Positions 9,701-51,389 of a DNA stretch of 64,000 nt are shown in pieces. The notes beneath the pieces are model-generated. The model made no database searches, had not been told where the DNA came from, and worked only from the letters and a program-made list of their open reading frames with translations. The position numbers and the translations under genes are program-made. Source of the stretch: Takakia lepidozioides (lineage: Eukaryota > Plantae > Bryophyta); contig CM060732.1 in assembly GCA_030704615.1 (NCBI GenBank), positions 13,702,001 through 13,766,000 on the forward strand, read 5' to 3'. Within the stretch, counting starts at the first letter, position 1. Each line of letters begins with the position of its first letter.

Positions 9701-9818
9701 TGAGTGAATCATGTTTGGAGTGTCTTTGACATAATACTGCCAATGTGACAACAGGAAAGTATATGAAAACCATGACTCTCCAAAAAAAAGAGTAAAAAAA
9801 CCATGATTTGGCGTAGTG
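3798..9818. mobile_element. Non-autonomous CACTA element carrying PPR gene fragments (Pack-CACTA 1)
   Basis: CACTA at 3798 and TAGTG at 9814-9818, with 3-bp TSD TCA on both sides. Dense CATGAC/GTCATG subterminal repeats at 3800-4460, 6429-6670 and 9763-9810. No transposase ORF recognised. Confidence 0.85.
7480..9625 (+). pseudogene. PLS-class PPR gene fragments (patchwork)
   Basis: Short ORFs with [52 protein letters not shown]. Many stops and frameshifts, interleaved with a repeated non-coding block. Confidence 0.85.
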
Positions 9819-11107: not shown

Positions 11108-11362
11108 TAAGGTTAGTGAAACAAAACAACTGAATTATATGAACGAATGATAAACAAATGCCTTGCTGGCAGCTATTGGATGAATGTATGAAAGGTTAGT
11201 GAAACAAAACAACTGAATTACCTGAACGAGTGATAAACAAATGCCTTGCTGGCAGCTATTGGATAAACGTATGAAATATAATTTTTGTGCACTGGATGAA
11301 CGTATGAATGTACGATAAGGAAAACGCCTTGCTGGCAACTATTGTATGAACGTATGAACGGA
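11108..11362. repeat. Degenerate ~83-bp tandem repeat (2-3 copies)
   Basis: AAGGTTAGTGAAACAAAACAACTGAATTA and GCCTTGCTGGCAGCTATTG recur. Confidence 0.7.
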
Positions 11363-11699
11363 TGATAATGCACTTGGCTCGAGTTTAGGGTTGCTAGGTC
11401 ACAGTGTGCAGCCTGGCTGGGACTGAGTGTTTTTTTTGGGGTCGGCGTGGTTCGAGAGCTCCGCAGGCTTAGGGACTTTGCGTTTGTTTGTCTTTGTGCC
11501 ACCATCTGTGTTTTCTTAAGGTTCGCGAACCAGGATAAGCGGTTTCTAAAAGACTAGTATCTTGTTGTGTGCACATGAGAGAGCGGGTGGGCGGGGGGAG
11601 GAGAGAATAGAGAGAGAGAAGTGTCGCGCAGCGAGTATACTGTTTGTGGGATCGACCTGTATGTTTGCTCGCTATATGGGAGCTTTAGAGCGGAGACAG

Positions 11700-14600
11700 C
11701 AGGGAGTGTTCAACAGTATGGCTGAACGAGATGTGGTGTCGTGGGGTGCGATGATTGCAGGATATGCACAGCAAGGGCGTGGGATGGAGGCTTTGCAGAC
11801 ATATGAGCACCTTCTGTAACACATTTCAGCCTGTTTTCCCTGTTATCAGGATTCAGAGTCATCCCTAAATTTTCAGGTTGAATTCTGCAAGTTAGCTCGA
11901 CGTTGGTGCAAAAAGGTGAATGCCTGTTGGAAGCGCAAGTCAGCATAGGAACTAGTGTGAGAAGTAGGGTGTTTGCTGGAACAAATCTAGGCTGTCATTG
12001 TCAGCTGCTAGCAGCAAGGCAAGGAGGTACTATGCATGATTTGTGCAGAGGTATGGATAGCCGAAGGAGCAGGGATAGAGTGTGGGTCCAGATTCATCCA
12101 AGAGGGCCGGATTTCAAGCTCCAGATTACCTATGAATCCCTGTGGAATGATAGCTACAAGAAACCTGCATGCGTAGATGGTCAACTGGAAGCCGCAACAG
12201 CAGCGGCGGCGGCACAATTGATAAAATTCAGGCACTGCTACTCAAGGCACCTTCTTCAACACATTTCACCCTGTTTTTTCCTCTTATCAGAACCGGCCCT
12301 AAATGTCTCTTAAGGCCTTCAGCAGATGGGTTGAACAGAGTCACGTGGTTTACTTTTTCAACTTGACTTTCAGATCTCAGGGCATGCGAGAGACAGTGTC
12401 AACAATCAATCATTCTTCCTGCAAAGTCTTGGTCTGCACAATCTGAGACTTGAGATCCTCCACAATGGCCAGCATGTTTTTAGTTGAGGATCCACCCTCT
12501 GCCATATCCTCATGAGCACAATATTTGAGCTTCCCTACCCTGGTTCGAATTGCCATGCCCTCCTCCCCTGTCATTAGCTCCCTGATGTGTGCATGATTTG
12601 TGCAGAGGCAGAGATAGCTGAAGGAGCAGGGATAGAGAGTAGGTCTAGATTCATCCAAAAGGGCCAGATTTCAAGCACAAGATTACTTATGATTTCCTGT
12701 AGATCAATAGCTACAAGAAACCTGCATGGGTAGATGGTCAACTGTCATGCCGCAGCAGCAGCGGCACAACTGATAAAATCAGGCACTGGTAATCGAGGCA
12801 CCTTCTTCACATTCACCCTGTTTTTCCCTCTTATCAGAATCGGCCCTGAATTTCCATGTTGAATTCTGCAAGTTAGCTGGTTGAGTGAATGTAGTTTGGA
12901 GTGACTTTGACATGATACTGCTACTGTGACAACAGGAAAGTATCCAAAAATAGGTAACAGAGATGAGGAGAAGCTGTGGAATGAATGCTTTTCTGACTCC
13001 AGTCAGTGGTGGGACACCAGGCAAAAAGGTGAATGCTTGTTAGATTACAGGAGAGTAGCAGACGCAATTCAGTATAGGAACTAGTGTAATAAGCTGAGTT
13101 GGGTGTTTCCTAGAACAAATCTAGGCTGTCATTATCAGCTGCAGGGCAAGGATGTATGCATCATTTGTGCAGAGGCATGGATAGCTGAAGGAGCGGGGAT
13201 AGAGTGTGGGTCCAGATTCATCCAAGAGGGCTGGACTTCAAGCTCCAGATTACCTTGATTTCAGGTGGATCAGTAGCTACAAGAAACCTGCATGTGTAGA
13301 TGGTCAACTAAAGGCAGCAGCTGTAGTGGCACAGTTGATAAAATCAGGCACCTCAACCATGACCACAGCTGTTGAAATTAGAGGATCAAGAGAGGGAGTC
13401 CACAATGCCTCTTCTGGCACTTCTGGGCATGTGAAGATACTTTGTGCCGCAGGCAGACTGACAGAGGCTCTACAGACTCTAAACCAAGGAGGCATTTCAG
13501 CAGATTCAGATATGTCTGTCTGTTGCTTAAGTGCATCAAGATGGATGGTCTGGAAGCTGGAAAGCAGGTGCACACTCACATTATCCAAAGTGGATTCACA
13601 CCAAATGTTTTTCTACTCAACACCCTTGTCAACATGTATGTTAAGTGCGGGAGCATCATGGATGCTCACCAAGTGTTCAACAGAATGCCTCAATGATCTT
13701 TGATCACGTGGAATATTATGTTGGCAGGATTTACCAAGCGTAGGTGTGGTAGGAATGCTTAGGAGACCTATGAGCAAATGTTGCGTGAAGGGGTGAAGCC
13801 CAACCACATCGCGTTTGTCTGTGTTTGCAATGCTTGTGCAAGCCTGGGAGCTCTGGAAAAGAGGGAAGAGGTCCATAGTGACATTGTCAAAGTTGGAATT
13901 GTACCAGATGTCATCCTGGAAACAGAAGCGGCAGCAGCCCAATTGATAGAACAATTCGCTGCTAATGAAGGTATCTTCTTCAATACATTTCACCCTGTTT
14001 TGCCATGTTATCAGAGTCGTCCCTAAATTTAGAATTCTGCACGTTAGCTCGTTCATGATGTGAGCTGGCATGAGTTTTATAAAGATCCTTCACGATGGTG
14101 GGACAACCGCAATCACAAGGTGTGGCTTTTCTTAATGTACGATGTGAAGAAGTTTGTCCATCCTGTAAAGGTGGGCTCTTGGCTCCTGTTAGTACCATGA
14201 TTTGGTGTTCTTCCTGATGTTTACAAGGTTCTTGGGAGAGTCAGCTTGGTCTTAGTAGGCCGTGTTTCAATCTCTGCCTGCTCAGCTGCACCGTGGTGGT
14301 TCTCACAGACCAATCCAACATTACCTGACTACAGACACAAACATCACACACAAGAGGTCATTTTGGGTTGATGCTCGGTCAAATCCTCCATGGGTCAAGG
14401 ACAATGTGGTGAGGGCACCTTCTTCTTTGACCTGTTGCAGCCTGTTTTGCCCCCTCGTCAGACTTGGCCCTGAGATGCATATTGAATTATGTAAGTTAGC
14501 TCATTGGGTGGATCTGTGGTGGTTTGGAGTGACTTTGAACTAGTGTGATAAGTAGGGTTGGGGTGTTTGCTGGAACAATTCTAGGCTGTCATTGTCAGCT

Positions 14601-16140
14601 GCTAGCAGCAAGGCAAGGATGTATGCATGATTTGTGCAGAGGTATGGATAGCTGAAGGGGCAGGGATAGAGTGTGGGTCCAGATTCATCCAAGAGGGCTG
14701 GATTTCAAGCTCCAGATTACCTATGATTCCATGTGGATCAATAGCTACAAGAAACCTGCTGCATGGGTAGATGGTCAAGTAAAGGTAGCAGCTGCAGCGG
14801 CACAGTTGATAAAATCAGGCACCTCAACCATGACCACAGCTTCTGAAAGAGGATCAAGAGAGGGAGTCCACAATGCCTCTTCTGCTGGGCATATGAAGAT
14901 GCTTTGTGAGGCAGGCAGACTGACAGAGGCTCTACAACTTTAAACCAACAAGGCATTTCAGCAAATTCAGATACGTTTGTCTGTCTCTTGCTTAAGTGCA
15001 TCAAGATGAAAGGTCTGGAAGCTGGAAACAGGTGCACACTCACATTATCCAAAGTGGATTAACGCCAATGTGGGAACATCATGGATGCTCACCAGGTTTT
15101 CAACAGAGTGCCTCAACGATCTTGATCACGTGGAATATAATGTTGGCAGGATTTACCAAGGATGGGTGTGGTAGGAGTGCTTTGGAAACCTATGAGCAAC
15201 TGCTGTGCGAAGGGTGAAACCCAACCACATCACATTTGTTTGTGTTTGCCATGCGTGTGCAAGGCTGGGAGCTCTGGAAAAGGGGAAAGAGGTCCATGGT
15301 GACATCGTCAAAGCTGGATTTGTACGAGATGTCATTCTGAACACTGCCCTGGTGGACATATATGCCAAATGTGGGTGCATTAAGGATGCGAAGGGAGTTT
15401 TCAACACTATGGCTGAACAAGATGTGGTGTCATGGAACGTGGGGGGAATGTGATGCTTGTAGGGTATGCACAGCAGGGACATGGAATGGAGGCTTTGGAG
15501 ACCTATGATCAAATATTGATGGGGGAAGGGGTGAAGCCCAACCACATCACGTTGCAGCATACTGGTACTTCACAGCCATGGCGGCTCTCTCAGCCTCTCC
15601 ATTTTTTTTTCTTTTGGTTTTTTTGGCGCTGGGAGAGAGCAGCAGCTCTGCTGTCTCCTTCCCCTTGCTTATGCCGATCGTTAAAGTGGAAATTGTCATT
15701 CTGAACTCTGCCTTGGTGGACATGTATGCCAAATGTGGGTGCAGCAAGATGTGAAGGGAGAGTTTGACAATATGGCTGAACGAGATGTGGTATTTTGGAG
15801 TGCCATGATTGCAAGGTATGTGCAGCATGGGTATGGGATTAAGGCTTTGGAAACATAAGAGCAAATGATGTGGGAAGGGATGAAGCCAGACCAGGCCGTC
15901 ATGCTCATTTGTTTTTGTAATATGCATATGCGAGCCTGGGAAGGGGCAAAGAGGTTTATGGTGACATTATCCAAGCTGAAATTGTACCAGATGTCATTCT
16001 GAACATTCCCCTGGTGTACATCTACGACAAATGTGAGCCTGGCAGCCCTTAAAAGGGCACAAAGGTCCATGATGACATCGTCAAAGCTGGAGTTGTCACT
16101 CTAAACACTGCCTTGCTGGATATGTATGTTAAGGCAGCCC
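11700..16140 (+). pseudogene. PLS-class PPR gene fragments, including N-terminal/5' region copies
   Basis: ERDVVSWGAMIAGYAQQG, KILCAAGRLTEAL, GKQVHTHIIQSG, NTALVDIYAKCG motifs in short broken ORFs. Confidence 0.85.
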
Positions 16141-21462: not shown

Positions 21463-23004
21463 CAATCCCCGGTTGTAACATCCCCGCTTGCTTTTTGTAT
21501 TCGCTCCGGTTTTTGCTGGCATGTGGTGCATGTCTTGACATACTCCTCGGCCTCCTCCCTTAGTTTGGGCCAGAAATACTTTTTCTTCAAGAGTGTTGCG
21601 GTGCGCTTGGCTCCGCCGTGGCCTGCAAGCGGGCCATTATGGCATTCTCTCAAAAGACCATATCTGAGCCATCCCTTCGGTACGTAGAGGCGCTTTTGCT
21701 TGTACCGGAGCAATCATTTATGCAAATAGAACCGCGACTTAACCCCCAGCCTCAAGTCCCGCAATATCGACTTTGCGAACTCATCCTTCCGATAGGCCTT
21801 CCGAATTTTCCTCTGCAACTCCGTCTCGCCCTTGTACACCAACATGAGCTGCTGCTTTCTACTCATAGCATTGGCCACCACATTGTCATGTCCCGGTTTG
21901 TACTGGATATCCACGTCGAACACTGCCAAAGTGTCTTGCCACCTAATTTGTTTTGGAGACAACTTAGGCTGTGTGGCAAAATACTTCACCGTGACATTGT
22001 CCGTGAACACCTTCACCGGGTTGGAACCAACATAGTGGCGTCAAAGCTCAAGGCAGTGCACCACCGTCTTCATTTTTTTCTCATGCGTGGGCCACCGTCG
22101 CTCCACTTCATTCAGTTTCTTACTTTCGTAAGCCATTGGACGTCCATCCTGCATGAGCACACCCCCGATTGCGAAGTCTGACGCATCCGTGTGAATTTCA
22201 AATGGACGGTCCCGGGATCTTCAAGACTGGAGCTTCTGCCATCCGCTGCTTCAACTCGGCAAAAGCTTGGCCACAAAAAGTGTTCTATACCCATACCTTG
22301 GACTTACACAGAAGATCTGACAGCGGCCCCGCGATCTTGGTGAAATTTCTCACATACTTTCGGTAGTAGGAGACGAGTCCTAAAAAGGATCGCACTCCCG
22401 GGACCAAAGTCGGAGGTTCCCAGTCTAAGATCGCCCTTACCTTTCTATCATCCATTTTGCTCCCATTTTGTGTAATCACATGCCCTAAGAACTCCACCTT
22501 CGTGACCCCGAATTCGCACTTTGAAGCTTTGGCATAAAGCCTCCATTTCCGCAATTTCTGGAGCACCCTTTTGACGTGCTCCAGGTGCTCTTCCTTCGTT
22601 TTCGAGTACACCAAGATGTCGTCGATGTACACGATCACAAAGTCATCCAACTCCTGAAAAAGACAGTTCATCAGGGTGTTAAAGGTTGCTGGCACGTTGG
22701 TGAGCCCAAAAAGCATCACCAAAAATTCGTACGAGCCATATCTTGTCCTGCAAGCTGTCTTTTCCTCATCTTCTTCTTCTATCCGGATCTGGTGGTAACC
22801 CGAGCGTAAATCAATCTGGCTGAAATACTTTGCTCATGCCAACCGATCGAAGAGGTCGTCGATCCTTGGCAAAGGGTACCGGGTTTTGATAGTCACTTTA
22901 TTCAGAGCCCTGTAATCGACACACATCCGCAGCATCCCATCCTTCTTATCTGCGAATAGTACCGGGGCTCCATAATGTGACTTACTCGGCCGGATGTACC
23001 CATT
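21463..23004 (-). mobile_element. Degenerate chromovirus-family Ty3/gypsy fragment (RT, RNase H, integrase zinc finger)
   Basis: [55 protein letters not shown]. Homologous to 38530-40070. Confidence 0.9.
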
Positions 23005-23531
23005 TGTCGTGCGCATACGTATCGCTACACAACTACATCGATGTCCAAACCACACCACACATGTATGCACAATAAAGTAGTCTGCCATAATGATTGAAAG
23101 AACTAATCTCACATGTCTGATACAGAGAAACACAAAACACAACATCATCACTCTTTAAAATAGTAGTCGAGCCAGGGGCATCCCAAGCTATGGGGACTCC
23201 ACCCCACAACAACCTATTCTCCCTACATAAGCACACTCAGATTCTAAACAGTGAAGGAGCTCGGTCGTGCAGGCTCAACTCGAGAGAGATGAGCCGCACG
23301 ACTGACGCTCTCGTGAAGATAAGACGATTCAGGTGTCAAACTAAACTTGACATCTGACTTAACACTTGAACTAAATCCAAGTGTTAAATACAAATAACTA
23401 GATTTATTCTAGTTAGTTTCACACTGTGTTTATTTAACTTGACAACTGTCGTGCGCATACGTATCGCTACACAACTACATCGTTGTCCAAACCACACCAC
23501 ACATATATGCACAATAAAGTAGTCTGCCACA
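23005..23531 (-). mobile_element. 3' terminal region of the DNMT-gypsy: two 85-bp direct repeats (23005-23089, 23447-23531) around a 357-bp hairpin-containing spacer
   Basis: A polypurine tract CTAGGGGGGCGAT (23532-23544, minus) precedes TGTGGCAG, and the repeat ends GCACGACA. The copies differ at 3 of 85 positions. Confidence 0.8.
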
Positions 23532-23791
23532 ATCGCCCCCCTAGCTGGTGGATAGGTCTCTCTAACTCCAGATAGCTACAAGATGTAATAGCCACAGCCG
23601 TACTAAGTCCTCTATCACTGTCCCTATTGTACTCAAACTCTATAGACCAAGAGGCCGGGTACAAGAGTAGCCCCATCGTTAGTCGTCGTCTTGCAATCTG
23701 TGAACTTGAGCCAAGATCTCGTGTGTTCAAGGTCTCCTAGTAGCTTGGCCTTGCATTTATTGTTAGCCTTCCATGGTTGTATCCACTCCCA

Positions 23792-25693
23792 CTATCCAAT
23801 GCAATGCAGACATAACCAATCCCCATCAGGAACCATCTCAAGAGGTGGAGTCAAACATCCCATATGCCAACCTCTAGAGCATCGATCATACACCAGCATG
23901 GTGGCTGCCCCTCTAGCAGACCCACACAACATGCACCTCAAACTTGCAGGTACCACTGTCAGGTTTGGGTCAACCCTTCCATCAACATTTGGAAGGTGAC
24001 ATGGCGCGCAATTACGCACATGGTTCTTCCAAATCATGCCATCCCGACTCTCCAAGATCATGACTCTTGAAGGCAACACCTCTCGAACCCTCAAAATAGT
24101 ACGTCCTACAGTCACATCCAAGGTCGTAGGAGCAGTCTGCTGCAGATAAACATAGTCACCAGGGTTAAATCTCCGAACCCTAGGACGATAGCCCCCACCA
24201 CGTATGGTAGCATACCTCAACATATCGCAATGGCAAGGTTCTCGAAAGCCATGGGCATGACTTTCTTGAACAACTCTGCACGTTGATCACATACACGTGC
24301 CCACATGTCCGGATCATCAAGGTTGAGAACTGTAGCAGCTTCTCTACGAATGGATGCAGGCAAATCCGGCTCTCGGCCAAAGAGAAGAAAGTATGGTGAG
24401 AAGGAGGCAAGTGATGCTTGCTTGCTGAACCTGTAGCCCATGACGAACCAAGGTAACTGAAGGTCCCAATCTCCTAGGTGTCCCTTCTGTGCGGTGGTCT
24501 ACCAAGGCCTTGTCACATAAGGCCTAAAACTCCCCCAAGAACTCTCTCCCTTGGTCCGTGAGTGCCTTAGCTGGAGCACCGAATCGGCTAAGTACACAAT
24601 CCAAGAATGCATACGCAGCTCCCTCACTAGCCTTATCAGGCAATGGAACCAACTTGATCCACTTGAAAAAGTGCTCCACCATCACCAACACGTACTTGTT
24701 GTGGCGCATGGTCAATGGCAACGGCCCTGCGAAGTCAAGACTCCACTTGTAGCCCAATCCCATGATCGGAAGAGGATGCAATTGTGGAGTAGGGGCGTTG
24801 AATGAAGCACGCACCCTGTCACACACCATGCACCTAGCCACAAATTGTTGCACCTCTGTGTGCATACCACGCCACCAATATTGTCCCTGCAGTAGACTAT
24901 GAGTGCGTCGCAACCCAAAATACCCCAACTCCTCATGGGCATGCCGCACTAACCGTGCCCGCTGTGTTGGGTGAGGCACAATCCTCACTCGACCATCCTC
25001 CCACACTCGGAGCAGGTGTGTCCCCTCCCACTTGAACCTCTTGGCTCGTTGTAGGATCCGATCCCTCTCTTTGGCAGTCACAGTGGCCGCCGTGTCTCCA
25101 GTGCGGAGGTAGTCCAACACAGTTGAATCCTCATGTATATCTTTGGCGCCACCTTGCTCATTGCTGGCCTCAGGGTCCTCAGACACTCGATCTACAGTCA
25201 TCCCTATTGCAGGTCCAACCTGGCCTTTTGCTGCCAAGATACACAGAAATGCAGATGCATGCCATCCGGGCACCATCTCCTCATCCGTCTCACTATGCCA
25301 CCGAGCTCCAGTGTCATCCTGTTGGCTCGTGCATGGATTGCGACTCAACCCATCTGCATTGCGATTGACCAAACCTGGTCGATGCACAACCTGAAAATCA
25401 TACTCTTGAAAGATGAGTGCCCACCGTGCAAGCTTCCCCGTAAGCTTGTCTGACTCCATCAACCACTTGAGTGGTTGGTGATCCGTGACAAGGGTGAAGA
25501 AATTGCCGTATAGATAGCACCTGAAGTGTGCCCCGGCCCACACTGCAGCTAAGCATTCTCCCTCATATGAGCTATACTTAGTCTCCGCAGCGTTGTTCGA
25601 GCGGCTAGCATAAGCCACTACGAACTCTCTTCCCTCATCATCTACCTGTGTGAGCACCACTCCAAGCCCCAACATGCTCCAATCTGTATGCAA
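23792..25693 (-). pseudogene. RNase H, integrase and C-terminal PHD finger of the DNMT-gypsy pol
   Basis: ORFs 24524-25693, 24217-24441 and 23792-24223. PHD pattern CMLC...MLVYDRCSRGWHMGCLTPPL..VPDGDWLCLHC. Confidence 0.9.
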
Positions 25694-26760
25694 CTGAAAA
25701 ACGCCCCCTGATAGGTCGTCTCAAGATGGGCGCCGAGGTCAACCTCGCCTTGAGCTCTTGGAAAGCTCGTTCTTGCTCATCTTCCCACTGCCACTCCTGG
25801 TCCACCTTGGTCAGCTTGGTTAGAGCCTTTGCAATGGCACTAAATCCCTTGACAAACCGTCTATAATAGTTTGTCAACCCCATGAAAGCTCGAACTCGGC
25901 TCACATCCGTGGGGCGTGGAATCTGTGCAATGGCCTCTACCTTAGTCTGCTGTACCCCCAATTTTCCAGGATATATCATATGACCCAGATACTCAATCTG
26001 GTTGTGGAAAAACTTGCACTTCCCCGGATATAACTTCAATCCGTGCGCCCTTAAGCGCTCAAATACCACCTGGAGGTGTCTCTCATGCTCCTCCACCGTA
26101 GCACTAAAGATGATGATGTCATCTATGTAGCACCGAGCAAACTCCACCCCTGCTAGAATCCTGTCCATGACTCTCTGAAATTCTGCCGGAGCGTTCTTAA
26201 GCCCAAATGGTAAGAACCGCCACTGGTATAGGCAATCCTTCCCGTGCTCATTGATCCCCCAGAATGTCGTCTTCTGCTTATCCGCCTCCTTGATCGGCAA
26301 CTAGTGATATCCGGATCGTAAATCCAAAGTGCTAAAGACCTTGGCATGCCCAATGGCATCAAAGATCTCCTCTGGTGTCGGCATGGCATATCTATCGGAC
26401 TTGGTCTGACGATTTACAGGCCGGTAATCACCGCACATACGTCTCTCCGTCCAATTGCCATAGACATCCTTCTTGGCTGGCATCACTGTGGCTGAAGCAT
26501 ACTCTCCCCCAGATAGCTCCACCAAACCAGCCTCCCAAAGGTCCTGAGTTCTCATCTGAATCAAGGACCTCTCCATGTCATTGTATCTATAGGGTCTCCG
26601 AGAGATTGGCGTGTCAGTAGCCAATTCAATGTGAATCTCTTGACCCTTCAGTGCTCCTAAGTCCTTCAAACTGAAGGCAAAGCAGTTCCTGTAAGCCCTC
26701 AAGAACCGCCGTATACGTCGTCTCTCTCCTCCGGTGACTATGGGTCCAACATCAGGCTCC
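25694..26760 (-). pseudogene. Reverse transcriptase of the DNMT-gypsy pol
   Basis: RMCGDYRPVN, FSTLDLRSGYH*, LPFGLKNAPAEFQR, CYIDDIIIFS, KCKF, YLGH. Confidence 0.93.
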
Positions 26761-27129
26761 CAGTTGTCCTCCGTGACTGCAACCTTGAGTCCAACAGGCT
26801 TAGAGGTAGAAGACGCGTCCCGTGGTTGCGATGCTGCAACCTCTTGAGCAGTGACCACTGCCTGCTCTGTCAGTGATAATGTCTCATCCTGCCCCATCAT
26901 CCCATCCTTGAGGACCTCCTCAACCCGAGAAAAATCCCCAACCTCATCCATCACCGCCGCCTTGGCTGCCAACTCCTTTTGAACCTCGAGCACCTCCCAC
27001 GTGTGCCATGGATGCGGCCTGCACCTCGTGGTCCTCACCTGTTTTCCCCCACTCGCTGCCTGTACCGTCTCGGTAGGTAGGGAGACCATCAAGGGAAGTG
27101 TACTCCGTACTCTGCGCTGCTCAGCCATA

Positions 27130-28110
27130 GCCAAGCTGATAATCCAGGTCAAGCAATTGAGATCCATTGCTTGCCCCAACACCTGACGACATGATGCCTC
27201 AGAAAGAGATGGCACCGCCGTGGTACCAGTGGTAAAACCCATCGCCCACTCACGCTCGTCAGCATTGGGCTCCACTAATTGCTGCAACTGGCTATCCCAC
27301 AAGAGGCCAAGTCCACCATCCCGGAAAGCATGAGATCCTGGAAAGCTGAGCAGTGTAGGCAATGCTGCTCGTGGGTGACCCACCTTATTGACCACTGCCA
27401 AAGGTGATCGGTCATTGTGTCTCACATGCTGAGACTGCCTCCCTATGTCCAAAATGCTATCCACCGTCAGGTTGGGTGGCCGCTGCACCCCATCAAATGC
27501 ACGCTTGAGCAATGCATGTGGCATCAAGTTGGTCCACCATAGTCGTGGGCGATGAGCCCGTGACCCCACTGCAGCTGCATCCAACAACACTGCTGACCCA
27601 AGCCAAGACCACACTTGATGTACACTGGCCATCACCTTGGCCCGAGAATCACCCATCAATGGCACATTCTCCAAGATATATGCCGGAGAGTCTGTCTGCT
27701 GAAGCTGTAAATAGCGCAGGACCCTCAACATCTCCCAAAATAGGCGTGACCTTGAGTCTTGTAACCCATTGCCATACCCAGCTGATGAAAGCCCTTGGCA
27801 GGGCCAACCTGCAACTACTAAGTGAATAGGGCCAACCCGCTCCAAATCATGCGCCCCCAGTAAAGAGATGTCTGCTGGCAAGGCTTGTTGGTATCCACGA
27901 ACTGCAGACATTGGCAACAAATCAGGGTATTGCTGTACCAACTGAGCAACATGGCGCAGTGAGACCCGTCGTGCAGTCTCATCCCTCTCCACATATAGGT
28001 AACGTCGAACTCGTACATCTGCCTGCAGCACTGCAGCCAATCCAGTGCTAAATCCCGCCAAACAAGTCTAGAAGACATATGCCTTCATCCGGGCACTGCC
28101 ACACAAGAGG
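27130..28110 (-). pseudogene. DNMT3-like C5 cytosine DNA methyltransferase domain within pol
   Basis: Motif I LLDLFGGI (followed by a 1-nt frameshift), II YLYVERD, IV AGWPCQGLS (catalytic PC), VI ILENV, VIII AHRPRLWWTN, IX EREWAMGF, X RQVLGQAM, in canonical order. Motifs II-X share the open frame 26301-28061 with the RT N-terminus. Confidence 0.93.
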
Positions 28111-28452: not shown

Positions 28453-31049
28453 CTATACACGATGACCATCCCCTGACTGCCATCCAGGCTTGTAGGATGC
28501 TGACTCCTCCCAAAAATCCAGGGTGAAGCCCATGGGATACAACACTGCCCCACCAATGAGGACATCGTAAGAGACCGCGTCTGTCACAATGGCCTTGGCT
28601 TGCATCACTGAGCCATCTATAGGATGATCCGGCTGTAGTCTAATGGCCAACTCACGCCGTGTCATGCCCCAAGCCTGCTCTGATCCTCCCAGAGATGTCT
28701 GTATCTGGAAGGGACAAGGCTCCATATCCGCCTCCATGAGGCCCAAACCTGCAATAGCGGCTTTGCCCAACATTAGTGGCTGAGCTCCTGAGTCCAACAA
28801 GACCCGCAGTGGCCGGTACCTCTTGCCTGCCGGTCCACTCAAAGAGAAAATGCCATCCTTGTTGTCTAACAAGACAACTCCAGGTGTCACCATGGCGCGC
28901 TCAAAGGCTGGCCAAGCTGGCAGCTCCGTCAACCTGGCAGCTGCAGCTTGCCATGGCGCAGCCGTGGCAGTCTTGACCATCAAATCCGAGGATCCCTCTG
29001 CCACTACACCTTCCACTAACTCCGTAGAAGATGAAGTGACCTCCCCACTCTCACCGAGTGTTGCTGCTAGTCTGAACACTGCAGCTGGTCTTACCCCCGG
29101 CGTCGCAATCATGGTTGCCAAGAACAGTGGGGCCTGACACACAGAGGTGGCCGCCCCCAACAACACACTAGCTGCACTAGCCTTGGCAGCAGGTGTCAGT
29201 GCTGGACGTGTAGCTCTTCCCAATGGCACAATAACATCCGCCTCGGTATCCATCGGGTGACATTGTCTCCGCCAAGATGAATGATTGAGGCAACCTAGCC
29301 TGACGGCTTGCCTCCCCACGCTGTGGATCCAACTCCACCTCTGCACCTCGTGGCTCAGGAACTCGTGCTGCTCCTCGAGTGACGGCTGCAGCAGACTCCA
29401 CTTGCACTAGTGGTAGTGCTGCCCCACACATAAATCCCATGCCTCCCATGTCTCCTCCATCAGGATGACGCTGCTGAGGAGGAACAGGAGGTGGACCCTT
29501 AGGTCTTGGAGCTGGTACCACCTGAGTTGTGGCCATGGCAACAAGCCTTTGCTCTAGCTGCTGAAGCCGGTTGGCCATACCTTGGTCAACGCCCTGACCT
29601 CCATGTCCTTGGCCATACTGTGCTTGCCCTCGTCTTGCACCTCGTGCCTGACCACCTCGTCCTCTCTGAGGTGCTCCACCTTGCCCTCGGCCACCATTGT
29701 TCCTTTGGAACTGGCCTCGCCGCAACTCAGGGTGCAAGTCATAACACTGGGCATCTCTATGTCCATACTTGCCACAATGCCCACATTGCAACTGTGCAGG
29801 CTGTGCTTGTGCCAGCCCTTTGCCACTCTCTGGGAAATCTTTCTTGACATGGGGTCCTCCACATGTCCAACATACCACCCCTGGTTGCTGTTGGCCTGCA
29901 AAAGAAGCTACTGGCCTCTGCACCTGAGGTCCCCTGTAAGCTCCATGGAATTTGGGTTGGGAAACCTTGCCCCCCTGACCACGCTGTTGGGCAGTCTCTT
30001 GTGCCTGTGGGCTGGCAGCTGCACCTTGTGCAGGCATGTCCTTGCCAAATCCAATGGTATCAACTCGCTCCTCCACCATGTTGAGCTCAATCCACTCAGC
30101 CAGCAAAAACACATCTGTTAATGTGGGTTGGGCTGCTTGTAACAGGGTTGCATCCCGCACCCTTCTCCTGAGCTCCTTGTCCAAAATTCCATACCAGAAC
30201 TGGATTGCCTAAGCTTCAATAACCCCTTGGGTCACACTTATCAAGCGTCTCATACGAGTGTAGGCCTCTCGCAAGCTCTCACTAGATTTGCGCTGGAAGT
30301 CTTGCAAACTTCGCAGCTTCTCTGTCCGTACACCTTGGTAGTTCCTCCGTAACTCCTGGAAGAACTCCACCACCAGGTTGAATCTAGGCACATGTGTTGT
30401 AGTCGTGGCAGGAGGAGTAGTAGCACTTTTTGAACTGGTTCCACCTGCAGAAGTACCGGCACTACTTGTTCCACTACTGATGCTGGTAGTGGGAGATATT
30501 GGTGCTGATGCAGCTACTGGTCACGTCGTGCCTCGAGTAATGGAGACGTAGTCAGGTGACCAATACATCCTCCACTCCTCAATCTCTGCTTCATGTCCTC
30601 GCCTGAACTCGTGATAATCGTCCATAGGCGGGCCTTCCAAATGCTGGAACAGTCCCTTCCACGCCATGAATGGGGTGAATAGTTGTGGATTGCGCATCTG
30701 CTGCAAATCACATCAGCTGTCGAACTCCTGGATAAAGTCATCCAACTCGATTGTGCCCACAGCTCCAGAGTACCTACGAGGCCCCTTGGTAGCTCCATAC
30801 ATCTCCTCCATGTCGTCCCACAACAATGTCGTCCCACAACAATGGCGAATGAAACTGCACACCTGTTGATGAAGCCTCCGAGTCTGTGTCTGACTCTGCA
30901 CTAATTGAGGGTGGAGGTGAAGGTGGTCTGAAACGAACACCTCGTCTAGTGAACCCACTCTCACTGCTACTGCCTGTAGCCGTACTCCCCTCAGAACCCC
31001 TGGGTAACTCCGTGATGACACTCACATGTGCACCTCCCCCACGTGACAC
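28453..31049 (-). pseudogene. Gag and aspartic protease of the DNMT-gypsy
   Basis: LDDFIQEF and L..FQRK..ESLREAY.RM gag pattern, knuckles CWTCGGPH and CGHCGKYGH....C, protease RVLLDSGAQPLMLG...DVLIG. Confidence 0.88.
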
Positions 31050-31727
31050 TATAAGGCTCTAGTACTAATTCTAATAGTGACACGGGTGGGCACCTGTTGC
31101 AGTTTAAGGGTCATATCCCAGTGGCTCAGGGCACCGGCACCTGCACCTGCACCTGCACCTGCATCCACCGCAAGAACTCCTATGGTTGGCTGGTCATCAA
31201 CCCAGTCTCACCATAGAAGAAACACTGGTGGTCTTGATGGTCATCACTCCAGCCTCACCACCGACAGCATACTCTAAGATTGACCGGTGATCAAATCTGG
31301 CCTAATCCCTATGAAAGCAAGCGCCCACACAAAACCAACATGGCGCACAGTCAAGCATGCAGGTGTTGGGGGGGATCCAAACACAAGAAATCAAAACATC
31401 AACATCCCCACACCAAAATCCATCTGCAGTGCTGATTCTGCAGAATATCCCAGCCCAAAACCTCGAACTGGCTGGCCTCCACCAAGGGAGGCTTTGGCAA
31501 CTACAAGTACAAAATAATGAAAATATTAAAGTGAGGGAGGGGAAGAATAGAGGCCCGACCAAGCAAGATGTAATCATGATCTATGCTATCAACTGCCAGA
31601 CTTTTCTCAAAGTGCCTCTCTCTGCATGATGGTAAGGTGTAGGAGGTATATCTATGTCCAGAAACCTGCCACTGACCTTATCCCAAGCTACAGTAGCTCG
31701 CTCTAACCAACCCTCCTCCTCTCTCTG

Positions 31728-32330
31728 CTAGGTAGAGACAAAGCAATACTCCCCTATCTCCCGCTCACTGAACACTAAAGAAAATAAAGGTAAGGTCTGA
31801 CAGTCTTTCAACTCGAAAGCTTTGAGACGGTTGCGGGTGTCCTCATTGCGAATGACTGCATCTCCTTCAAGCAGAACAAACTTGTCATTGCTAATGAACC
31901 CCCGCTCGTGGTTGCCTTGTGCAGAGCGTGTCCGACTGCAACCATGTCTGATTGCAAAAACTTGTGTAGCTCCTGCTCCTTTGCTCCAGTACACCACCGC
32001 CTTGTGGCTGAACACTTTGGTCCCCGGGGCTGTTTTTGGCTGTGTTCCAAGCCTAGCTTCCACCCACTTTGGTATTTCACCTACAGCTGCAGAACTGCTT
32101 GCTCCAACAGAGTTCTGACTGTCCAAAGCAATATTGAGGCCCTCAACGCCAACTACAGCAGTGTGTTGTCTATTGCTAATGCCTGACTCCCAGTATGCAA
32201 TCAACTCGTCCAACTGCTCTCCACTCAAATCAGTTTGAGCCCCTTGGGAAACATAAATCTTGTCCCCTTGTGTGCACAGGCTAAGAGAAGATACCTGCCC
32301 TTCAATTACGTCCTCATTTCCCGCAGCCAT
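31728..32330 (-). CDS. Hypothetical 200-aa protein upstream of and co-oriented with gag (possible extra ORF of the element)
   Basis: Uninterrupted ATG-initiated ORF with protein-like composition. No family recognised. Confidence 0.4.
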   Translation of the reverse strand: MAAGNEDVIEGQVSSLSLCTQGDKIYVSQGAQTDLSGEQLDELIAYWESGISNRQHTAVVGVEGLNIALDSQNSVGASSSAAVGEIPKWVEARLGTQPKTAPGTKVFSHKAVVYWSKGAGATQVFAIRHGCSRTRSAQGNHERGFISNDKFVLLEGDAVIRNEDTRNRLKAFELKDCQTLPLFSLVFSEREIGEYCFVST

Positions 32331-32886
32331 ACAAGGAGAACATCCACAGATTTGTCTCTCATATAGACCACAACAGGTTCTAGAAACAGAATTGTGGATC
32401 TTTCATGGCACACTCACACTCAAAAAATTCCATAGACTTTTAGCAGAGTCCAAAAAATTAAAACTAGATCTAGACAGGTAGATTTTCCCTTTCTGCAGCT
32501 ATCCCCCCAAAAACTGAGTCAAACGGAGTCCATTTGACAAAGATATGACCAATTAGGCTCTAAATCATTTAAATTAGATCAAAAAGGTTTTTTTTTTTTT
32601 TTTTAACACCAAAACGTTCTTGCCATTAAAAGCTGTTCCCAGGTTTCAATTGTGGTTACAGGCGCACCACCACAGGCTTGCTCTCTTAGTGAGCTGCTTT
32701 GCTCCAGCCATGATCTGTGCTCTGCTCCAACCACGACTCTCGAGCTCGGGTGTATGGTTGTGGCGATGGCGATGGCGATGGCGATGGCCTGTGCAGCGTC
32801 AGACATCTCGGCAACGCCTGCATACACATACGTTGCATCGAATCCACCTCATTAATGCACATGCGACAAATGGAAGGTGACATGAT

Positions 32887-33182
32887 TCAGGATTTGCCAA
32901 CCTGTGTAATTCCATAAGGTGGTTTGGGTATGGCCCCCTTTTCCATTGCCCTCCGAATAATCTGTCTGGCACGGTACCTCCTGTCCTTCAAGTTTCGCCC
33001 CACCATCTCCATCACCCTTGTGTCACTCCAATTGCCCAGAAACCGGCGGTCTAACTCACGGGCATACGCTCGCTTCGCGCCAAAGTGCTGATCAGCCCAC
33101 TCAACGTGCAAAGGGAACCACCTCCATGCGAGTTCGAAGGCTGGCTTCTTTATAGCCTCCCAGAACGCACTGATAACGGCTA
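32887..33182 (-). pseudogene. Possible DNA-transposon protein fragment, cut by the next element
   Basis: Basic, Trp-rich helical segment (WRWFPLHVEW...LKDRRYRAR). Only a loose resemblance to CACTA-associated proteins. Confidence 0.25.
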
Positions 33183-35619
33183 TGCTACAAGGGACAGACA
33201 ACGAGGGTCGCAACGGGACATACGGGGTAGTGATGGACGTACACTACCCGAGCCACAGGCAGAGACGGCTAAGTACGCGGTACTTAGCCAATGGCGGGAC
33301 AAGGATACATTACCACGAGAGCAGTAAGGGGTAGTGTAGTAACCGTGAGCCGTGAACCACGATATCACACGGTCACGATAGCATCGGCTTTAACCAATAG
33401 AGGGAGTAGTGGACCGTTTACCACTATGGCTCACGACCACTACAACAAGTCACTTTTAGCAAACCTTTTAGGTTGCGTAGGCAGTTAGGCAAACGGTCAT
33501 TAACGACCGCAGGCTGTAACGGCTCTTTCGAGCATAGTATAAAAAAACTGCACGCAACTTAGAGGGTGTGCAGTATGAGTATCAGTGATCAATGTGTATT
33601 TAGAGGGACTCAGAGTGATTCTGTGTACTTCTGTGATGATGTGACGAGCTCTGAAGTAAAGCCATGCTATTCGAAGTATCTCTGTGTAGAGTGAACGTGA
33701 GATGGTGAGAATGTGTATCGTCTCAGAAATAATTCTTGTTTTCTCTTGACTACCATCTACTTGTATGAACCAAGAGGCTTCAGTCCTTTCAACTAAGATG
33801 TTTTATGCTTAAGAGACTATAGATTGGTCTAAATCAATAGGATTAAGCAGTTTGCAAGGATATGGCTTCATCCGACGTTCATGGTTTAGCTATCCTTAAG
33901 TAATCGTTTCTAAAAGCATACCGTCGGACAACCTCTGTTGCATGTCTTAGGAAATGGGCAGTAGTGTTAATAGCCTGTTTTGTCTAAGTCATAAACTAGC
34001 GGTTAACAAATCACGTCAGAACGAGTCAACAGAAGCAAAGGAATGGAAAACATTCCTGGAAAATTTTCATGGTTTACCAAGAGCAATACAACAGAAAATC
34101 TTTCTGTCAGTCGTGAAAGAAGATGACAAATGGGGATTGAAGGGAGGAGTGATCAGTATTACACAAGCATCTTGGGAATGTAGGATTAGAAGTGAAGAGT
34201 GGTTGTCTCGTCTAGCTCTATTGATTACTCTAATCCCAATCCAGAAAGTTTGTTACACTAGTTATATTTTTCAGAGAAGGATGTTCAAATTATGAATAGT
34301 GTCACACGATCATAGAAGCAGTGGAGTACTGGATACCCAAAGACTTATTGCAAGTCAGATACACTGAAAAAGACAGATGGTATTATTGTGCCCATTAAAA
34401 AGTTTGGTGATCAATCAGTAAAAAAGAAAATTAAGTTGTAATACGGATTCTTGCAAGATAGGATGAGTCTTGAAGAAAGGGTAGAGACCCTATAAATTTT
34501 CTGTACTGACATACCAAGACTGTTTTAAAGGGTACTGAAAGGAATTATACATATGATGTAGGAATGAATGAGGAAATTAAAGAAAAAGCTAAACAAGACA
34601 GAGCTGAACGAATAGAGAAATATGCTGCAGAAAGGGAGGCTCGGTTAAGAGAAGAGTTCCCAAAATTACAGAACTTGAAAATTATTCGAGGTGAGACATC
34701 AAACAGTGATAAACCAGAAGATCAGGAAATCGGATCGGTGGGAAGTGGGAACACTACACCAGAAGAAGTTGCCAGTAATGTACTTGGTGAATGGTTATCA
34801 CAAGAAAGATCTGAAGGACCTTCTACAGTAACAAGCGCAAATAGAGGTTTTGCTGAAATATTAGAAGAAAGATTTGAGAACATTTTGAGTGAAGAAGGTG
34901 AAAGAAGTGAAAGCACTTCTCCAGAAAGGATAACCAGAACTGCACTCAAAGCTTTTAAAGATTCATTAAGCTTAGTAGGGACAGCAGCTGGGAGACGACT
35001 ATCATTGGGACAAGGACCTCCTAGCTTTGAATCACTGTTTGGAAGACAAACACCAACACCACCACAGCCAGCAACAGCGGGACCATCCCAGTTTGGACAA
35101 CCAGTTGCACCAGCAGCACCAATTGCACCAGCTACATCGATGGCTTTAGCAGCAAGCAAAACCAGACCACCATTTCCTTTATATGATGGGAAATCTGATC
35201 CAGATATCCATCTTAATCAATTTGAAAACATGTGCACCATTTACAATGAAGCAACAGACCAAGAGAAGATCCAACTTATTTGCAGTCCTTACTGCTTCAG
35301 CCAAAGTGTTGTTATGCATGACTGTAACCATGGTTACATATTCAGGATGAAGTCCATTGATGAACCATGATTTTTGCAAATCATCCCCTGGTGCTTGAGG
35401 TAGTTTCCTGATCAGAGTCTTCATTCTCTCCATGTAGTCTACTACCAATTCGTTCTTTTTCTGTCTTAGGTTCTGTAATCCTGTGAAGATTTCAGACGTG
35501 GATTTGTTGGATCTATATCTTTCTTGAAACGCGACTCTCATATCCGCCCAATTCGCCAAGTGATTGGCTGGGAAATTTGCCAACCATTCAATGCCTTTTC
35601 GGGCCATTGAACAAGGAAA
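33183..35619 (+). mobile_element. Truncated LTR retrotransposon 5' part (putative LTR 33183-33918, gag 34564-35278, flipped gag continuation 35279-35619)
   Basis: TGCT...AGCA-bounded segment, then gag YDGKSDPDIHLNQFE...EKIQL on plus. It continues FPCSM...W..MR.AF.ERY...LRQKKNE.V.DY..R...FINGL on minus. Confidence 0.7.
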
Positions 35620-35620
35620 G

Positions 35621-36994
35621 TCCGATGGTGGAACTCGCCATTCCCTGCCATCGCCGAAATCATCGTGGAGCACAACAATACTCTCGACAACAACGCCGTT
35701 TGAGTCCTTCCTTTCCTCCTCCAAAAAAACCGACCCCGGTTTCAGGTGGTATCAAACGCACAGATATTTCTCCATCATACGGCAGATGTCCCCTCTGCAC
35801 GGACATGAAGCTCTATGCTCGTGAGGAGGGCAGTACACTGTAGCGCTCGGGTTTTCCGCCATGGGAGATGTGCACACAAGACTGCCAGGATGGCGTGCGG
35901 GCAAGCTCCTTGGTAGAAGGGGGATGCACCGATGGGAAGGAATGCGGTGCCGATTTGTCCGAGCGACGAAGCCTGATCCAAATCCAGGGAGCCAACTATC
36001 TCAAAAATCCACAGTCAGAGTGTTAATGAACCTTGTCTCCGGAATGCGGCCCCTGGTCTTTGCGCAATAACTGCCAACGGTATGCAGTCAGAAAGTGGGG
36101 GGCTGCCCGGATGATGTCGGCTGAAGGGGAGAAGCCGGCACCGGGCCGTCACATTACAACCCCCGGATGGAAATTCGACACCGAATATCCAACAGGGGCC
36201 GCCCGGATGAAGTCGACTCGGGTGGAGAGGCCGGCACCTGTCCGACAGAGAACATCCCCCAGATTTCCATTCAGCGCCGAATTTCCATCCGGGCTCCCCC
36301 AAACGAAGTCGTGTCGGGGGGTCAGGCTGAAAAGTGGCCGACATAAAAACCTCCCCGGATGGAAAAACTGCGCCGAATTTACATCCGGGGCCGTTTGGAT
36401 GCAGTCGGCTCGGGGGGAGAGGCCGTCACATTACAACCCTCAGACGGGAATTCGGCACCGAATATCCAACAAGGGCCGCCCGGATGAAGTCGCCTCGGGC
36501 GGAGAGGCCGGCACCTGTCCGACACAGAACATCCCCCGGATGGAAATTCAGCGCCGAATTTCCATCCGGGCCCCCTCAAAGGAAGTCGTGTCGGGGGGTC
36601 AGGCCGAAAAGTAGCCGACATAAAAACCTCCCCGGATGGAAAAACGGCGCCGAATTTACATCCGGGGCCGTTCGGATGCAGTCGGCTCGGGAGGAGAGGC
36701 CGGCACCTGGCCGTCACATTACAACCCCCGGACGGAAATTCGGCACCGAATATCCAACAGGGGGCGCCGGGATAAAGTCGACTCGGGCGGAGAGGCCGGC
36801 ACCTGTCCGACAGAGAACATCCCCCGGATGGAAATTCGGCGCCGAATTTCCATCCGGGCCCTCCCAAAGGAAGTCGTGTCGGGGGGTCACACCGAAAACT
36901 GGCCGACATAAAAACCTCCCCGGATGGAAAAACGGCGCCGAATTTACATCCGGGGCCATTCGGATGCAGTCGGCTCGGGAGGCGAGGCCGGCAC
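35621..36994 (-). mobile_element. 5' fragment of the MULE-like element: ORF start plus ~288-bp tandem array of palindromes
   Basis: 35621-35990 is the reverse complement of ~60850-61219. GCCGACATAAAAACCTCCCCGGATGG recurs at ~36337, 36614 and 36902. Confidence 0.85.
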
Positions 36995-44951: not shown

Positions 44952-45261
44952 TGTTGGAAGTAATTAAACATATCTAGTAGAAGACTAAGAGTCTTTAAGG
45001 CCAAAGGTTTAGAAGTCTAAGAGACTATCTTGTTTAACTCACCTTTGGAAGGTGAATGGCTAGAAGGTGGATGGTCACCATAGTGGAAGTGGAAGTGACC
45101 AAGTAGGACTTCCTAGAGACCTTCTTATACAAGCTCGGGGGTGAAGCCACTAGTCTAAGTGTAAGAGTATGATGGTGGCTTCTATGGTTGGGAGGCGGGC
45201 TTTAGTTTTAGCTTTAGTCTAAGACTTTAGTTCTTGTTCATGTTCTTGCTCAATTCTAACA
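44952..45261 (+). mobile_element. Copia 3' LTR (310 bp)
   Basis: Preceded by PPT GAGTGGGAG, TG...CA termini, followed by AACAA. Confidence 0.93.
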
Positions 45262-47713: not shown

Positions 47714-47914
47714 ATGTAAAGGGATGATGGGTTGGAATCGATTTACTGTCTTCTGTCTCAGAAACAGAGTCACACTACAGTAAATTGTAGATTTTAGGTA
47801 AGTGAAACTGTTGTTTTGAATGTATTTCATCATCCGGAATGATTCTTAGTTTATAAGGCTTTCGCCTTTACAGTGTCTCTCTTCCTGCATGCTCCACTAC
47901 CTCTGTCCAAGGCA

Positions 47915-48255
47915 TCGTGGATACAATCATTCTCCACTATGAATCTCCTCAAGTGGCGGTGTCAAGCATCCCATGTGCCACCCCCTTGAGCATTTGTCAT
48001 ACACTAACATGGTCGCGGCACCACCAGCATGCCCACATAGCATGCAACGCACCCTGCATGTACCACTGCAAGGTTGGGATCTATCCTCCCATCCACATGT
48101 GGAAGGTGACATGGCGCACAATTACGCACATGGTCCTTCCATACCATGCCATCTCGACCCTCCAGAATCAACACTCCTGAAGGCAACACCTCCCGGACCC
48201 TTAGAATCACACGACCTGCTGTGACATCCAAGGTCGTAGGCGTTGTGGCTGTCAC
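47915..48255 (-). mobile_element. Isolated fragment of the DNMT-gypsy integrase tail and PHD finger
   Basis: PTTLDVTAGRVILRVREVLPSGV...HVRNCAPCHLP and CMLC...MLVYDKCSRGWHMGCLTPPL. Homologous to 23800-24135. Confidence 0.88.
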
Positions 48256-49267
48256 ATATTGTTGGATGTTTTTTCAACCATATTCTCTGCCTCAAAATTC
48301 TAGTTTGCTGCTCAAAGCCATATTGTTCTACAAAATTCCCCACCCTTAAAGAACTAGGACTTAGAATTTTTTTTAAATATTAACCTGATGAAAAGGGGGG
48401 TGGGTTCATGGGCACACCCCGCCGTACTGGCAGGGTCTATAGGCTGCTATTATTAAATAATGAGGTCTATTTCTTCTCACCTGCTTTTAAATCTTAGCAA
48501 AAAAAAGGTTTTTGTGCGAAATTTTTGACAAGGTTTTCATGTAGGTAGCACAACCGTTGCTAATCCATCAATCATATTGCAATTTCGCCGGGTATCCAAC
48601 AACCTGCAACCTGATGTCACCAGAATCAGGCAAACTGTTCAATTGAATGCCTTTAATGAGGATGCATCTGTAGGCAAAAACAGAAAGAGAACAGGTGTGT
48701 TTACTCTACTTCGATATTTTGTGTCCCCTTCAACAGCGGAAGGACAAAGGTGTGAAGGGTTGGAGCTTCCAGTGAGAGCACCAAATCTAGCCAAGGTGAC
48801 CACAATTAACTATATCCGCGAGTTAGATCTATGACACGTCAGTGCATGATCTACCATATTTGGTGTCAATAGTGACGGCATATGGTTATATCCAAATTGC
48901 ATCATTATCACCATGTTTGAAAAAACAATGGTCATAAAAATAATGGCCAAGAAGGCTGAAACATGGAAACGTTCAGCTTTGAATGTCAATCTCACAATTT
49001 GCATTTATTGTTTCCAGTGAACACTCGTTATAGGCAGATACTGCTACCTCGTCCAATTTCACTGCTCATAGGCACTCACTCTATTCCGTAATTCTCAGAA
49101 GCATATCCACAATAACCTTTGACAAGTTTTACAATGCAGAGTCTTGTGACTAGACTGCATGCCTGCAAATTCACATATGTGGGCACACCCCCACAAAATT
49201 GAGAGAGATGCTCATGCAGGCAAAGTGCAGGCTTCGTTATCAGAAACCTCTTTATCCAATCATGGTG

Positions 49268-51135: not shown

Positions 51136-51389
51136 ACCAGGATTTTCCTCGGAGTAAGGGAAATGACAGAGCTCGCGTGCTCTTGTAGTTTCTGCAGATC
51201 AAGCAATGAGCAACAAACAGTTCTGACTGGAGTTTTTCTCAGATGCTTCACAGTGGTGGTTTCATAATGTACGTTTTTTTCATCTTGGACATGAAATGAT
51301 TGACACTGGCCTTTTAATTATGCACTTGGCTATTTCACTTGGTAACAATAATATTCTTCACTAGGAAAAGGTAGCAAAAGCACTGCAGG

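Follow-up and report, generated by a model that had tools for sequence, protein, structure and literature searches.

We found that a 64,000-nt stretch of the moss Takakia lepidozioides (GCA_030704615.1, contig CM060732.1, positions 13,702,001-13,766,000 of the forward strand; called the window hereafter) carries a decayed copy of a Ty3/gypsy retrotransposon of the Gypsy-DNMT3 type with the order gag, protease (PR), DNMT3-like methylase, reverse transcriptase (RT), RNase H (RH), integrase (IN) and PHD finger. The element type is known, but the conserved PHD finger at the end of its integrase is apparently undescribed. Judged from domain content and conservation, the somewhat favoured explanation is that this finger tethers the integration complex via the unmodified start of histone H3 and that the methylase works as a separate module. 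A sequence-only reading of this DNA had offered two ideas, a reassembled DNMT3-like reader/writer pair and a choice of integration sites by the finger, and of these integration targeting is the likelier one.

The element extends from 30811 to 23005 on the minus strand and ends in a purine tract and B-A-B repeats. Pfam matches for the methylase, RT, RNase H, H2C2 and rve lie upstream of the PHD finger on the same strand, so that the claim of one element encoding both a conserved finger at the integrase end and a DNMT3-like methylase was borne out. The Gypsy order PR-RT-RH-IN with a DNMT3-like domain in pol is thus present in the following arrangement:

29243..30811, minus strand: gag with three stops (53% identity to residues 1-489 of P0023)
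28510..28890, minus strand: aspartic protease with LLDSGA motif (translation; tblastn with Marchantia P0023)
27078..28095, minus strand: DNMT3-like C5 cytosine methyltransferase with PCQ, ENV and RxR present and a motif I frameshift near 28055 (PF00145, E 8.6e-11)
26823..26831, minus strand: Ser codon followed by a CARYYA-type hexamer, 21 codons before the RT marker
25394..26768, minus strand: reverse transcriptase and RNase H with a stop at 26303 and a frameshift near 25701-25714 (Pfam, tblastn)
24310..25015, minus strand: integrase H2C2 and catalytic core with a stop at 24526 and frameshifts (Pfam, tblastn)
23946..24226, minus strand: C-terminal beta-barrel (SH3-like) of the integrase and a linker of about 20 residues to the PHD finger (AlphaFold2 model of the Marchantia relative P0064)
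23792..23945, minus strand: C4HC3 PHD finger and pol stop codon at 23794-23792 (PF00628, E 2.1e-8; PHD matches in PDB; codon map)
23534..23548, minus strand: purine-rich, PPT-like tract adjoining repeat B1, conserved in related loci
23447..23533, minus strand: repeat B1 (87 bp), ends in GACA, 96.6% identical to B2
23092..23446, minus strand: segment A of the split terminal repeat, starts with TGTC after 2 bases
23005..23091, minus strand: repeat B2, the 3' end of the element
21471..23004, minus strand: interrupted host gypsy of the chromovirus type, from RT to the start of the integrase (88% to 38531-40059)
47897..48258, minus strand: second, isolated fragment of integrase tail and PHD finger of the same clade (78% nucleotide identity), frameshifted and with Tyr at ligand 3

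Stops and frameshifts are found in gag, in the protease linker, in motif I of the methylase, in RT and in the integrase; a 10-base gap near 24226 moreover shifts the PHD finger out of the frame of the integrase core. Neither Gag-protease-methylase nor RT-RH-integrase-PHD can be made intact from this copy, which is dead and an ordinary member of the family. Because the copy is broken and the reading frame of its finger is shifted, the single polyprotein that had been read from the sequence holds at best as the design of the family. The claim that the element had inserted into a chromodomain-family gypsy at 23004/23005 was confirmed: the 87-bp end repeat stops at 23005, and the adjoining host sequence (21471-22991) is 88% identical to the second gypsy copy of the window, the open reading frame of which contains a chromodomain (PF00385, Chromo). 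Other copies of the host family continue differently at this junction. Within the 64-kb window we found neither the upstream half of the host gypsy nor the 5' repeat (A) of the element nor a target duplication. From a single insertion into a chromovirus, no targeting can be concluded. The element itself and 21 scanned relatives did not contain a PF00385 chromodomain.

The sequence upstream of gag (30812-34500), where the 5' A repeat is expected and missing, had no match among 80 related loci and is possibly an insertion or rearrangement; an open reading frame upstream of gag (31731-32402, 224 aa, minus strand) gave no Pfam match. A 780-aa open frame at 60777-63119 on the plus strand likewise had no Pfam match, and the stretch 35620-35991 recurs in inverted orientation at 60849-61220 (97%). 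Upstream of the chromovirus copy at 37269-41083 lie tandem repeats of 96/277 bp with palindromic units (36099-36994), and related units are found at 1-470. Many decayed repeats of about 300 bp, which by eye resemble PPR-gene motifs, occupy both strands at about 7400-16100 and 51300-60400. Pieces of Copia-type gag and RT (668-1927, minus strand; 42859-44963, plus strand) occur together with a 98% inverted 310-bp pair (2053-2362 and 44952-45261).

The open frame at 23795-24286 (minus strand) matched PF00628 with its residues 118-162 (E 2.1e-8, 34.5 bits at a cut-off of 24). When the finger was compared with PDB, 64 sequences were retrieved at E<=0.001, and those among the matches listed were all PHD-finger proteins, including PHF12, CHD4, PHD1 of KDM5A/B, ATXR5, DPF3, BHC80 and BAZ2A. 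The ligand codons are located at 23935 (C), 23926 (C), 23890 (Y), 23881 (C), 23866 (H), 23857 (C), 23812 (C) and 23803 (C), with the stop at 23794-23792. Seven of the eight ligands are therefore intact and the third is Tyr, and both the Pfam score and the codon map agree with the C4HC3 finger originally read at the end of the integrase tail, including its Cys to Tyr exchange.

Ligand 3 was checked in the contigs of four other runs (X1, X5, X7, X9) from four studies. Here, a Cys codon accounted for 860,356 of 869,050 depth units in X1 (86 contigs) and for all depth in X5, X7 and X9. Since other copies read Cys in 99-100% of the depth, the Tyr of the window copy is decay. Of the 111 places at which this copy differs from the others in X1, 82 are transitions, as expected of decay. 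The exchange recurs, since Tyr is also present in the fragment at 47897-48258 and in 6 of 73 genomic relatives. Conservation of the zinc ligands among copies had been proposed as a check of the finger, and we found all eight in 130 of 134 PHD fingers of long relative proteins. Even among 74 distinct, mostly decayed genomic copies the eight sites were retained in 66/73, 69/73, 64/73, 72/73, 68/72, 68/72, 63/70 and 59/70 cases (84-99% per site). Between families the finger is under strong purifying selection: over 50 PHD codons, pN is 0.19-0.33 versus a pS of 0.59-1.0 in all but one of 15 pairs, and the exception consists of two close copies.

The model of the integrase tail of the window copy is of low confidence (mean pLDDT 48). 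The AlphaFold2 model of the Marchantia relative P0064 consists of a barrel (beta strands at 21-71, pLDDT mostly 74-94), a linker and the PHD finger (pLDDT about 90), and this finger superposes at 0.6-1.4 Å over about 50 residues on the PHD fingers of BHC80, ATXR5, BAZ2A/B, UHRF1 and DPF3. The top Foldseek rows for P0064 (Tudor-PHD of PHF1 and UHRF1; rmsd 11-15 Å) were rejected as loose barrel-plus-PHD matches. In the relatives the finger always follows directly after the integrase barrel and would thus occupy the slot that chromoviruses fill with a chromodomain. This equivalence, which had also been claimed before, rests on domain order, and on that level it stands; when the profiles of the two integrase tails, from this element and from the chromovirus, were compared, they aligned in register, but the match lacked significance (E 0.1).

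Relatives were searched with the integrase tail (22 matches), with the methylase (39) and with the integrase without PHD finger (246, of which the best 120 were listed). Named members come from Marchantia, Calypogeia, Sphagnum, Coleochaete, Klebsormidium, Chromochloris, Tetrabaena, Pleodorina and Chlamydomonas eustigma, and among these the Marchantia and Calypogeia proteins share 72-77% identity with the window element. Among the best 120 of the 246 relatives, for which the query consisted of integrase core and tail only, family profiles detected a PHD finger in 117, a methylase in the same frame in 92 and both in 89. The methylase occupies two positions. In 8 of the 92 it precedes RT as in the window (type I), and in 84 it lies directly before the integrase (type II); a further 21 proteins among the best 120 begin a short distance ahead of RT and group with type I. 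A methylase directly after the PHD finger in long relatives was also considered, and on checking this proved wrong.

In an integrase tree (FastTree; 137 rows and one chromovirus outgroup, the window copy not being among the rows) type II formed one clade (support 0.93). The close relatives of the window element, P0074 and P0076, formed another together with Klebsormidium P0171 (support 0.93), and two type I rows fell outside both clades. Three proteins nested in type II (P0191, P0215, P0237) have the protease directly before RT and lack the methylase but keep the PHD finger; conversely, P0151 keeps the methylase without a PHD finger, and P0147 has a degenerate finger. Because of these exceptions and the presence of the finger in 117 of 120, we infer that the PHD finger travels with the integrase and that its pairing with the methylase is ancestral rather than newly assembled. 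The idea that this very element had reassembled the pair thus gives way to a pairing that is the rule in an old green-plant clade. A methylase tree also splits the two architectures (15 versus 87), but since its support is 0.47 and it has no host outgroup, one capture with relocation and two captures look alike in it.

Several type II proteins (P0041, P0042, P0044, P0054, P0059 and others) carry an extension of 100-420 residues after the PHD finger. One segment of it is Tudor-like and matched PF21743 at E 0.09 in P0045. Another resembles adenine methyltransferases (PF02086, E 0.04-0.16; Atlas leads below 0.9), with DPxxGxG and SPWF-type motifs both present in 8 of 62. If real, this extension would make these elements PHD-based EpiLTRs with 5mC and 6mA writers. 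A G-patch domain was seen in P0049 and P0058, between methylase and integrase, and by precomputed Pfam in P0160 and P0183.

The best PDB matches of the methylase were DNMT3A (E 1.3e-8) and HhaI (E 1e-3), with DNMT3A/B as best solved relatives. Its motifs are kept in 12-14 of 15 type I domains, with PC, ENV and RxR mostly retained. In the window architecture a protease with a DSG motif precedes the methylase, and about 1,100 residues containing RT, RH and IN separate the methylase from the PHD finger. In many type I proteins the chain stops 60-160 residues beyond the methylase, and the proteins reaching from RT to PHD start just before RT. In 24 of 28 related loci, which represent three sequence families and include repeat assemblies of one insertion, a TAG or TAA stop interrupts the frame 15-27 codons ahead of the RT marker; in the remaining four this stretch is disrupted. 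The stop is followed by an exact CARYYA in 6 of the 24, L035 among them, by CAACCC in 13 and by a form in which CAA/CAG has decayed (TAA) in 5. Since an ATG follows one codon beyond CAACCC, reinitiation is possible in these cases. The clearest case of a likely readthrough design is L035:976-8227, which is open from gag to PHD except for a single stop (TAG-CAG-TTA) between methylase and RT. For UAG-CARYYA, readthrough of about 6-32% in plant assays is given in the consulted part of PMC2754532. In the window copy a Ser codon (26829-26831) precedes the exact hexamer and no stop is present there, and in 8 of the best 120 of the 246 relatives the methylase also reads into RT without a stop. Even in such a case the protease would be expected, as in Ty3/gypsy elements generally, to cut integrase from RT. 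In most close relatives, however, the stop between methylase and RT is likely leaky, which suggests that the methylase is made together with Gag and that integrase-PHD needs readthrough. As this stop separates the two domains in most close relatives, methylase and PHD finger probably do not form a one-to-one reader-writer enzyme.

The arrangement can also be read as reader-writer coupling as in DNMT3A with its ADD domain: the PHD finger would bring the methylase to, or switch it on at, H3K4-unmethylated chromatin, so that insertions or their flanks become methylated at integration. We consider this unlikely. It is most plausible in algal-type RT-RH-DNMT-IN-PHD elements; because the methylase abuts the integrase without a stop in type II (84 of the relatives), a surviving DNMT-IN-PHD chain is possible there, which makes type II the better place for a true reader-writer. 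The single frame in 89 of the best 120 relatives, the retained methylase motifs and the kinship with DNMT3A/B agree with coupling. So do the acidic PHD fingers of type II (90 of 101) and its acidic wall (75 of 101), described in the available text of PMC5415848 as the signature of readers of unmodified H3. In the window architecture, however, the two domains are far apart, follow a protease and are mostly separated by a stop, and in the family the methylase changes its position while the finger stays on the integrase, each being found without the other. Moreover, in PDB the finger is best matched by classical PHD fingers, with no ADD domain among the 60 matches listed, and the methylase of KnitGypsy-Dnmt3 was inactive in yeast, a result that its authors regard as inconclusive (PMC5890265, as far as consulted). 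A complex prediction for methylase and PHD finger of P0090, in which alignments were not used, gave no answer on this point (score 0.00). The DNMT3-like reader/writer pair of the sequence-only reading was therefore not upheld for the window element, given the distance of about 1,100 residues, the stop in 24 of 28 loci and the occurrence of each domain without the other.

A wider scenario, which we regard as speculative, combines these elements. They would form an unrecognised, green-plant-wide clade of split-LTR gypsies, whose DNMT3-like writer and PHD reader would both date back to before the chlorophyte/streptophyte split. In the algal type, the DNMT-integrase-PHD(-Tudor-adenine-methylase-like) chain would survive processing and methylate its own insertion on H3K4-unmethylated chromatin. 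In the land-plant branch the methylase would have come to lie before a leaky stop; produced at Gag level, it would be packaged and would pre-methylate the cDNA.

What the finger could bind was judged from residue positions. We take the Trp of the methyl-K4 cage to lie two residues before the His ligand. This cage Trp of H3K4me2/3 readers was present in none of 130 complete PHD fingers, and 122 have Gly there. In contrast, Asp after ligand 3 was found in 124 of the 130; this residue and the P-x-G-x-W loop, which presumably contact H3 Ala1/Arg2 as in solved PHD fingers, are both kept in all 13 members of the closest clade. An acidic wall (Asp/Glu before beta1) marks readers of unmodified, helical H3 of the BAZ2/KDM5-PHD1 type (PMC5415848, in the part consulted). 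When its position was placed by KDM5B PHD1 in the PDB alignment, the wall was present in 0/13 of the closest clade, 4/16 of other type I and 75/101 of type II proteins; the window copy has Ala. In the closest clade the net charge is zero or positive in 13/13 and an acid just before ligand 1 occurs in 2/13. Thus, the finger may read the unmodified start of H3, typically so in algal-type elements, whereas in the land-plant branch the grip on H3 is probably weaker, with little sensing of K4, because of the lost acidic wall. The sequence-only reading named the K4 state as a common target of PHD fingers, but for this finger such reading is doubtful, as neither the methyl-K4 Trp nor the acidic wall is present in the closest clade. 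No acid stands at the wall position in ATXR5 either, yet that protein was crystallised with H3.

The same residues bear on a further alternative, according to which the land-plant finger is not a histone reader but a structural or protein- or DNA-binding tail module for intasome assembly, nuclear import or binding of a non-histone host factor. The missing wall, the rare acid before ligand 1 and the non-negative charge in the closest clade would fit such a role, but the invariant Asp and P-x-G-x-W loop (13/13) and the match of the P0064 model to the fold of H3-binding PHD fingers argue against it, and we rate it slightly below reader-writer coupling. That the finger is a dispensable passenger kept by descent is very improbable: P0151 without a finger, the degenerate P0147 and the decay of most genomic copies would agree with it, but this is contradicted by the strong purifying selection seen between families and by the presence of the finger in 117 of the best 120 relatives, from chlorophytes to bryophytes. 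The 3' flanks of relatives (7 distinct ones, too few and with no background) are AT-rich (GC 0.23-0.31) and had no match to the six element proteins tried.

For tethering of the integration complex by the finger we propose the following sequence of events. The protease would release an integrase-PHD protein, the finger of which would hold H3 Ala1-Arg2-Thr3 via its conserved Asp and the P-x-G-x-W loop. It would not seek H3K4me3, and insertions would therefore be expected to lie preferentially away from active promoters. In elements with the stop, the main product would be Gag-protease-methylase, with RT-RH-integrase-PHD made by readthrough. Many methylases could thus be loaded per particle and methylate the new cDNA; action of the methylase on the element's own cDNA has been suggested in PMC5890265 (consulted in part). 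Several observations speak against this explanation. In the closest clade the finger is neutral or basic throughout and without the wall, so that predicted H3 binding is weakened. Methylase and finger have rarely been separated in evolution, since 89 of the best 120 of the 246 relatives have both in one frame. The window copy and eight of these relatives read from methylase into RT without a stop, and both PHD copies of the window have Tyr at ligand 3.

Complete relatives follow the layout A-coding-B-A-B with TG...CA ends and 4-bp target duplications (3/3 complete copies: L078, L046, L022); A stands alone at the 5' end, and PPT-B-2 nt-A-B form the 3' end. The window copy has B-A-B, and the 5' partner of A is missing. 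In these elements the split LTR, to be rebuilt by reverse transcription, is combined with a DDE integrase.

Methylase-bearing gypsies with split repeats have been published. KnitGypsy-Dnmt3 (de Mendoza et al. 2018, PMC5890265) has a Gypsy Pol with an embedded DNMT3-like domain and DIRS-like A-coding-B-A-B repeats, the layout of our complete relatives. The Klebsormidium protein KFL_009030040 (P0171, PR-DNMT-RT-RH-INT) belongs to the same integrase group as the relatives of the window element; it is partial and ends before the PHD position. The main text and three text supplements of PMC5890265, figures aside, do not mention a PHD finger, and in the parts consulted no bryophyte or chlorophyte members, no stop between methylase and RT and no second architecture are reported, unlike here. 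A search of the open literature, outside of which lay most subscription papers, Repbase, figures and preprint supplements, did not retrieve the pairing of a PHD finger with Gypsy-DNMT3, the stop or the second architecture. The conserved finger, the likely readthrough stop and the second architecture are thus apparently new.

Other elements share single traits. Chromoviruses carry a histone-reader-type domain in the same slot after the integrase barrel, but the window element has a PHD finger instead of the chromodomain, no aromatic cage, split terminal repeats and an additional methylase. Animal DNMT3A/B, the closest solved relatives of the methylase, have an H3-reading zinc finger in the same gene, and their ADD domain adjoins and regulates the catalytic domain; in the window element a classical PHD finger sits on the integrase, far from the methylase. 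EpiLTRs (10.64898/2026.05.21.726589) also combine DNA methylases with a chromatin reader, but they involve a chromodomain, an adenine methylase and a DNMT4-related domain; the consulted text names no PHD finger, and the authors call them distinct from Gypsy-DNMT3. In Ginger1-9_HM a PHD finger is C-terminal to a gypsy-like integrase/transposase as here, but this is a Hydra DNA transposon with a Ulp1 domain and, going by the consulted part of PMC2836005, with neither RT nor methylase. PHD fingers on retrotransposons have been called widespread (PMC6673714; 10.1101/2021.11.30.470311; both in part), and the expectation of such fingers in the REXdb clades Selgy and Phygy was not borne out by the consulted text of PMC6317226, which has no mention of them. 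The Chlamydomonas elements Gypsy-7a_cRei and REM1 have a Gypsy Gag-Pol with a PHD finger that was proposed to limit harmful insertions, and Gypsy-7a_cRei inserts intergenically 2.6 times more than chance (10.1101/2022.06.16.496473; PMC9940879; both in part). Unlike the window element, Gypsy-7a_cRei has near full-length LTRs at both ends and, in the sources consulted, no methylase among its domains.

Gene models of Marchantia polymorpha annotated as PHD-type domain or DNA-methylase genes (P0063-P0068, P0003, P0006, P0023-P0025) are fragments of this retrotransposon. Transposon PHD fingers have long been supposed to guide insertion, and in the part of the literature searched we found no test of this idea. 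The clade described here offers a natural series, in which an integrase-PHD occurs with or without methylase and with or without acidic wall, with copies in model plants whose chromatin has been mapped; targeting by the finger and self-methylation can thus be put to a direct test. A clue to the amount of methylase per particle is given by the stop between methylase and RT. Finally, pieces of this retrotransposon clade have been annotated as genes in Marchantia (Mp3g25500 and Mp4g09160, for example), and such fragments inflate the counts of PHD and DNA-methylase genes in bryophyte annotations.
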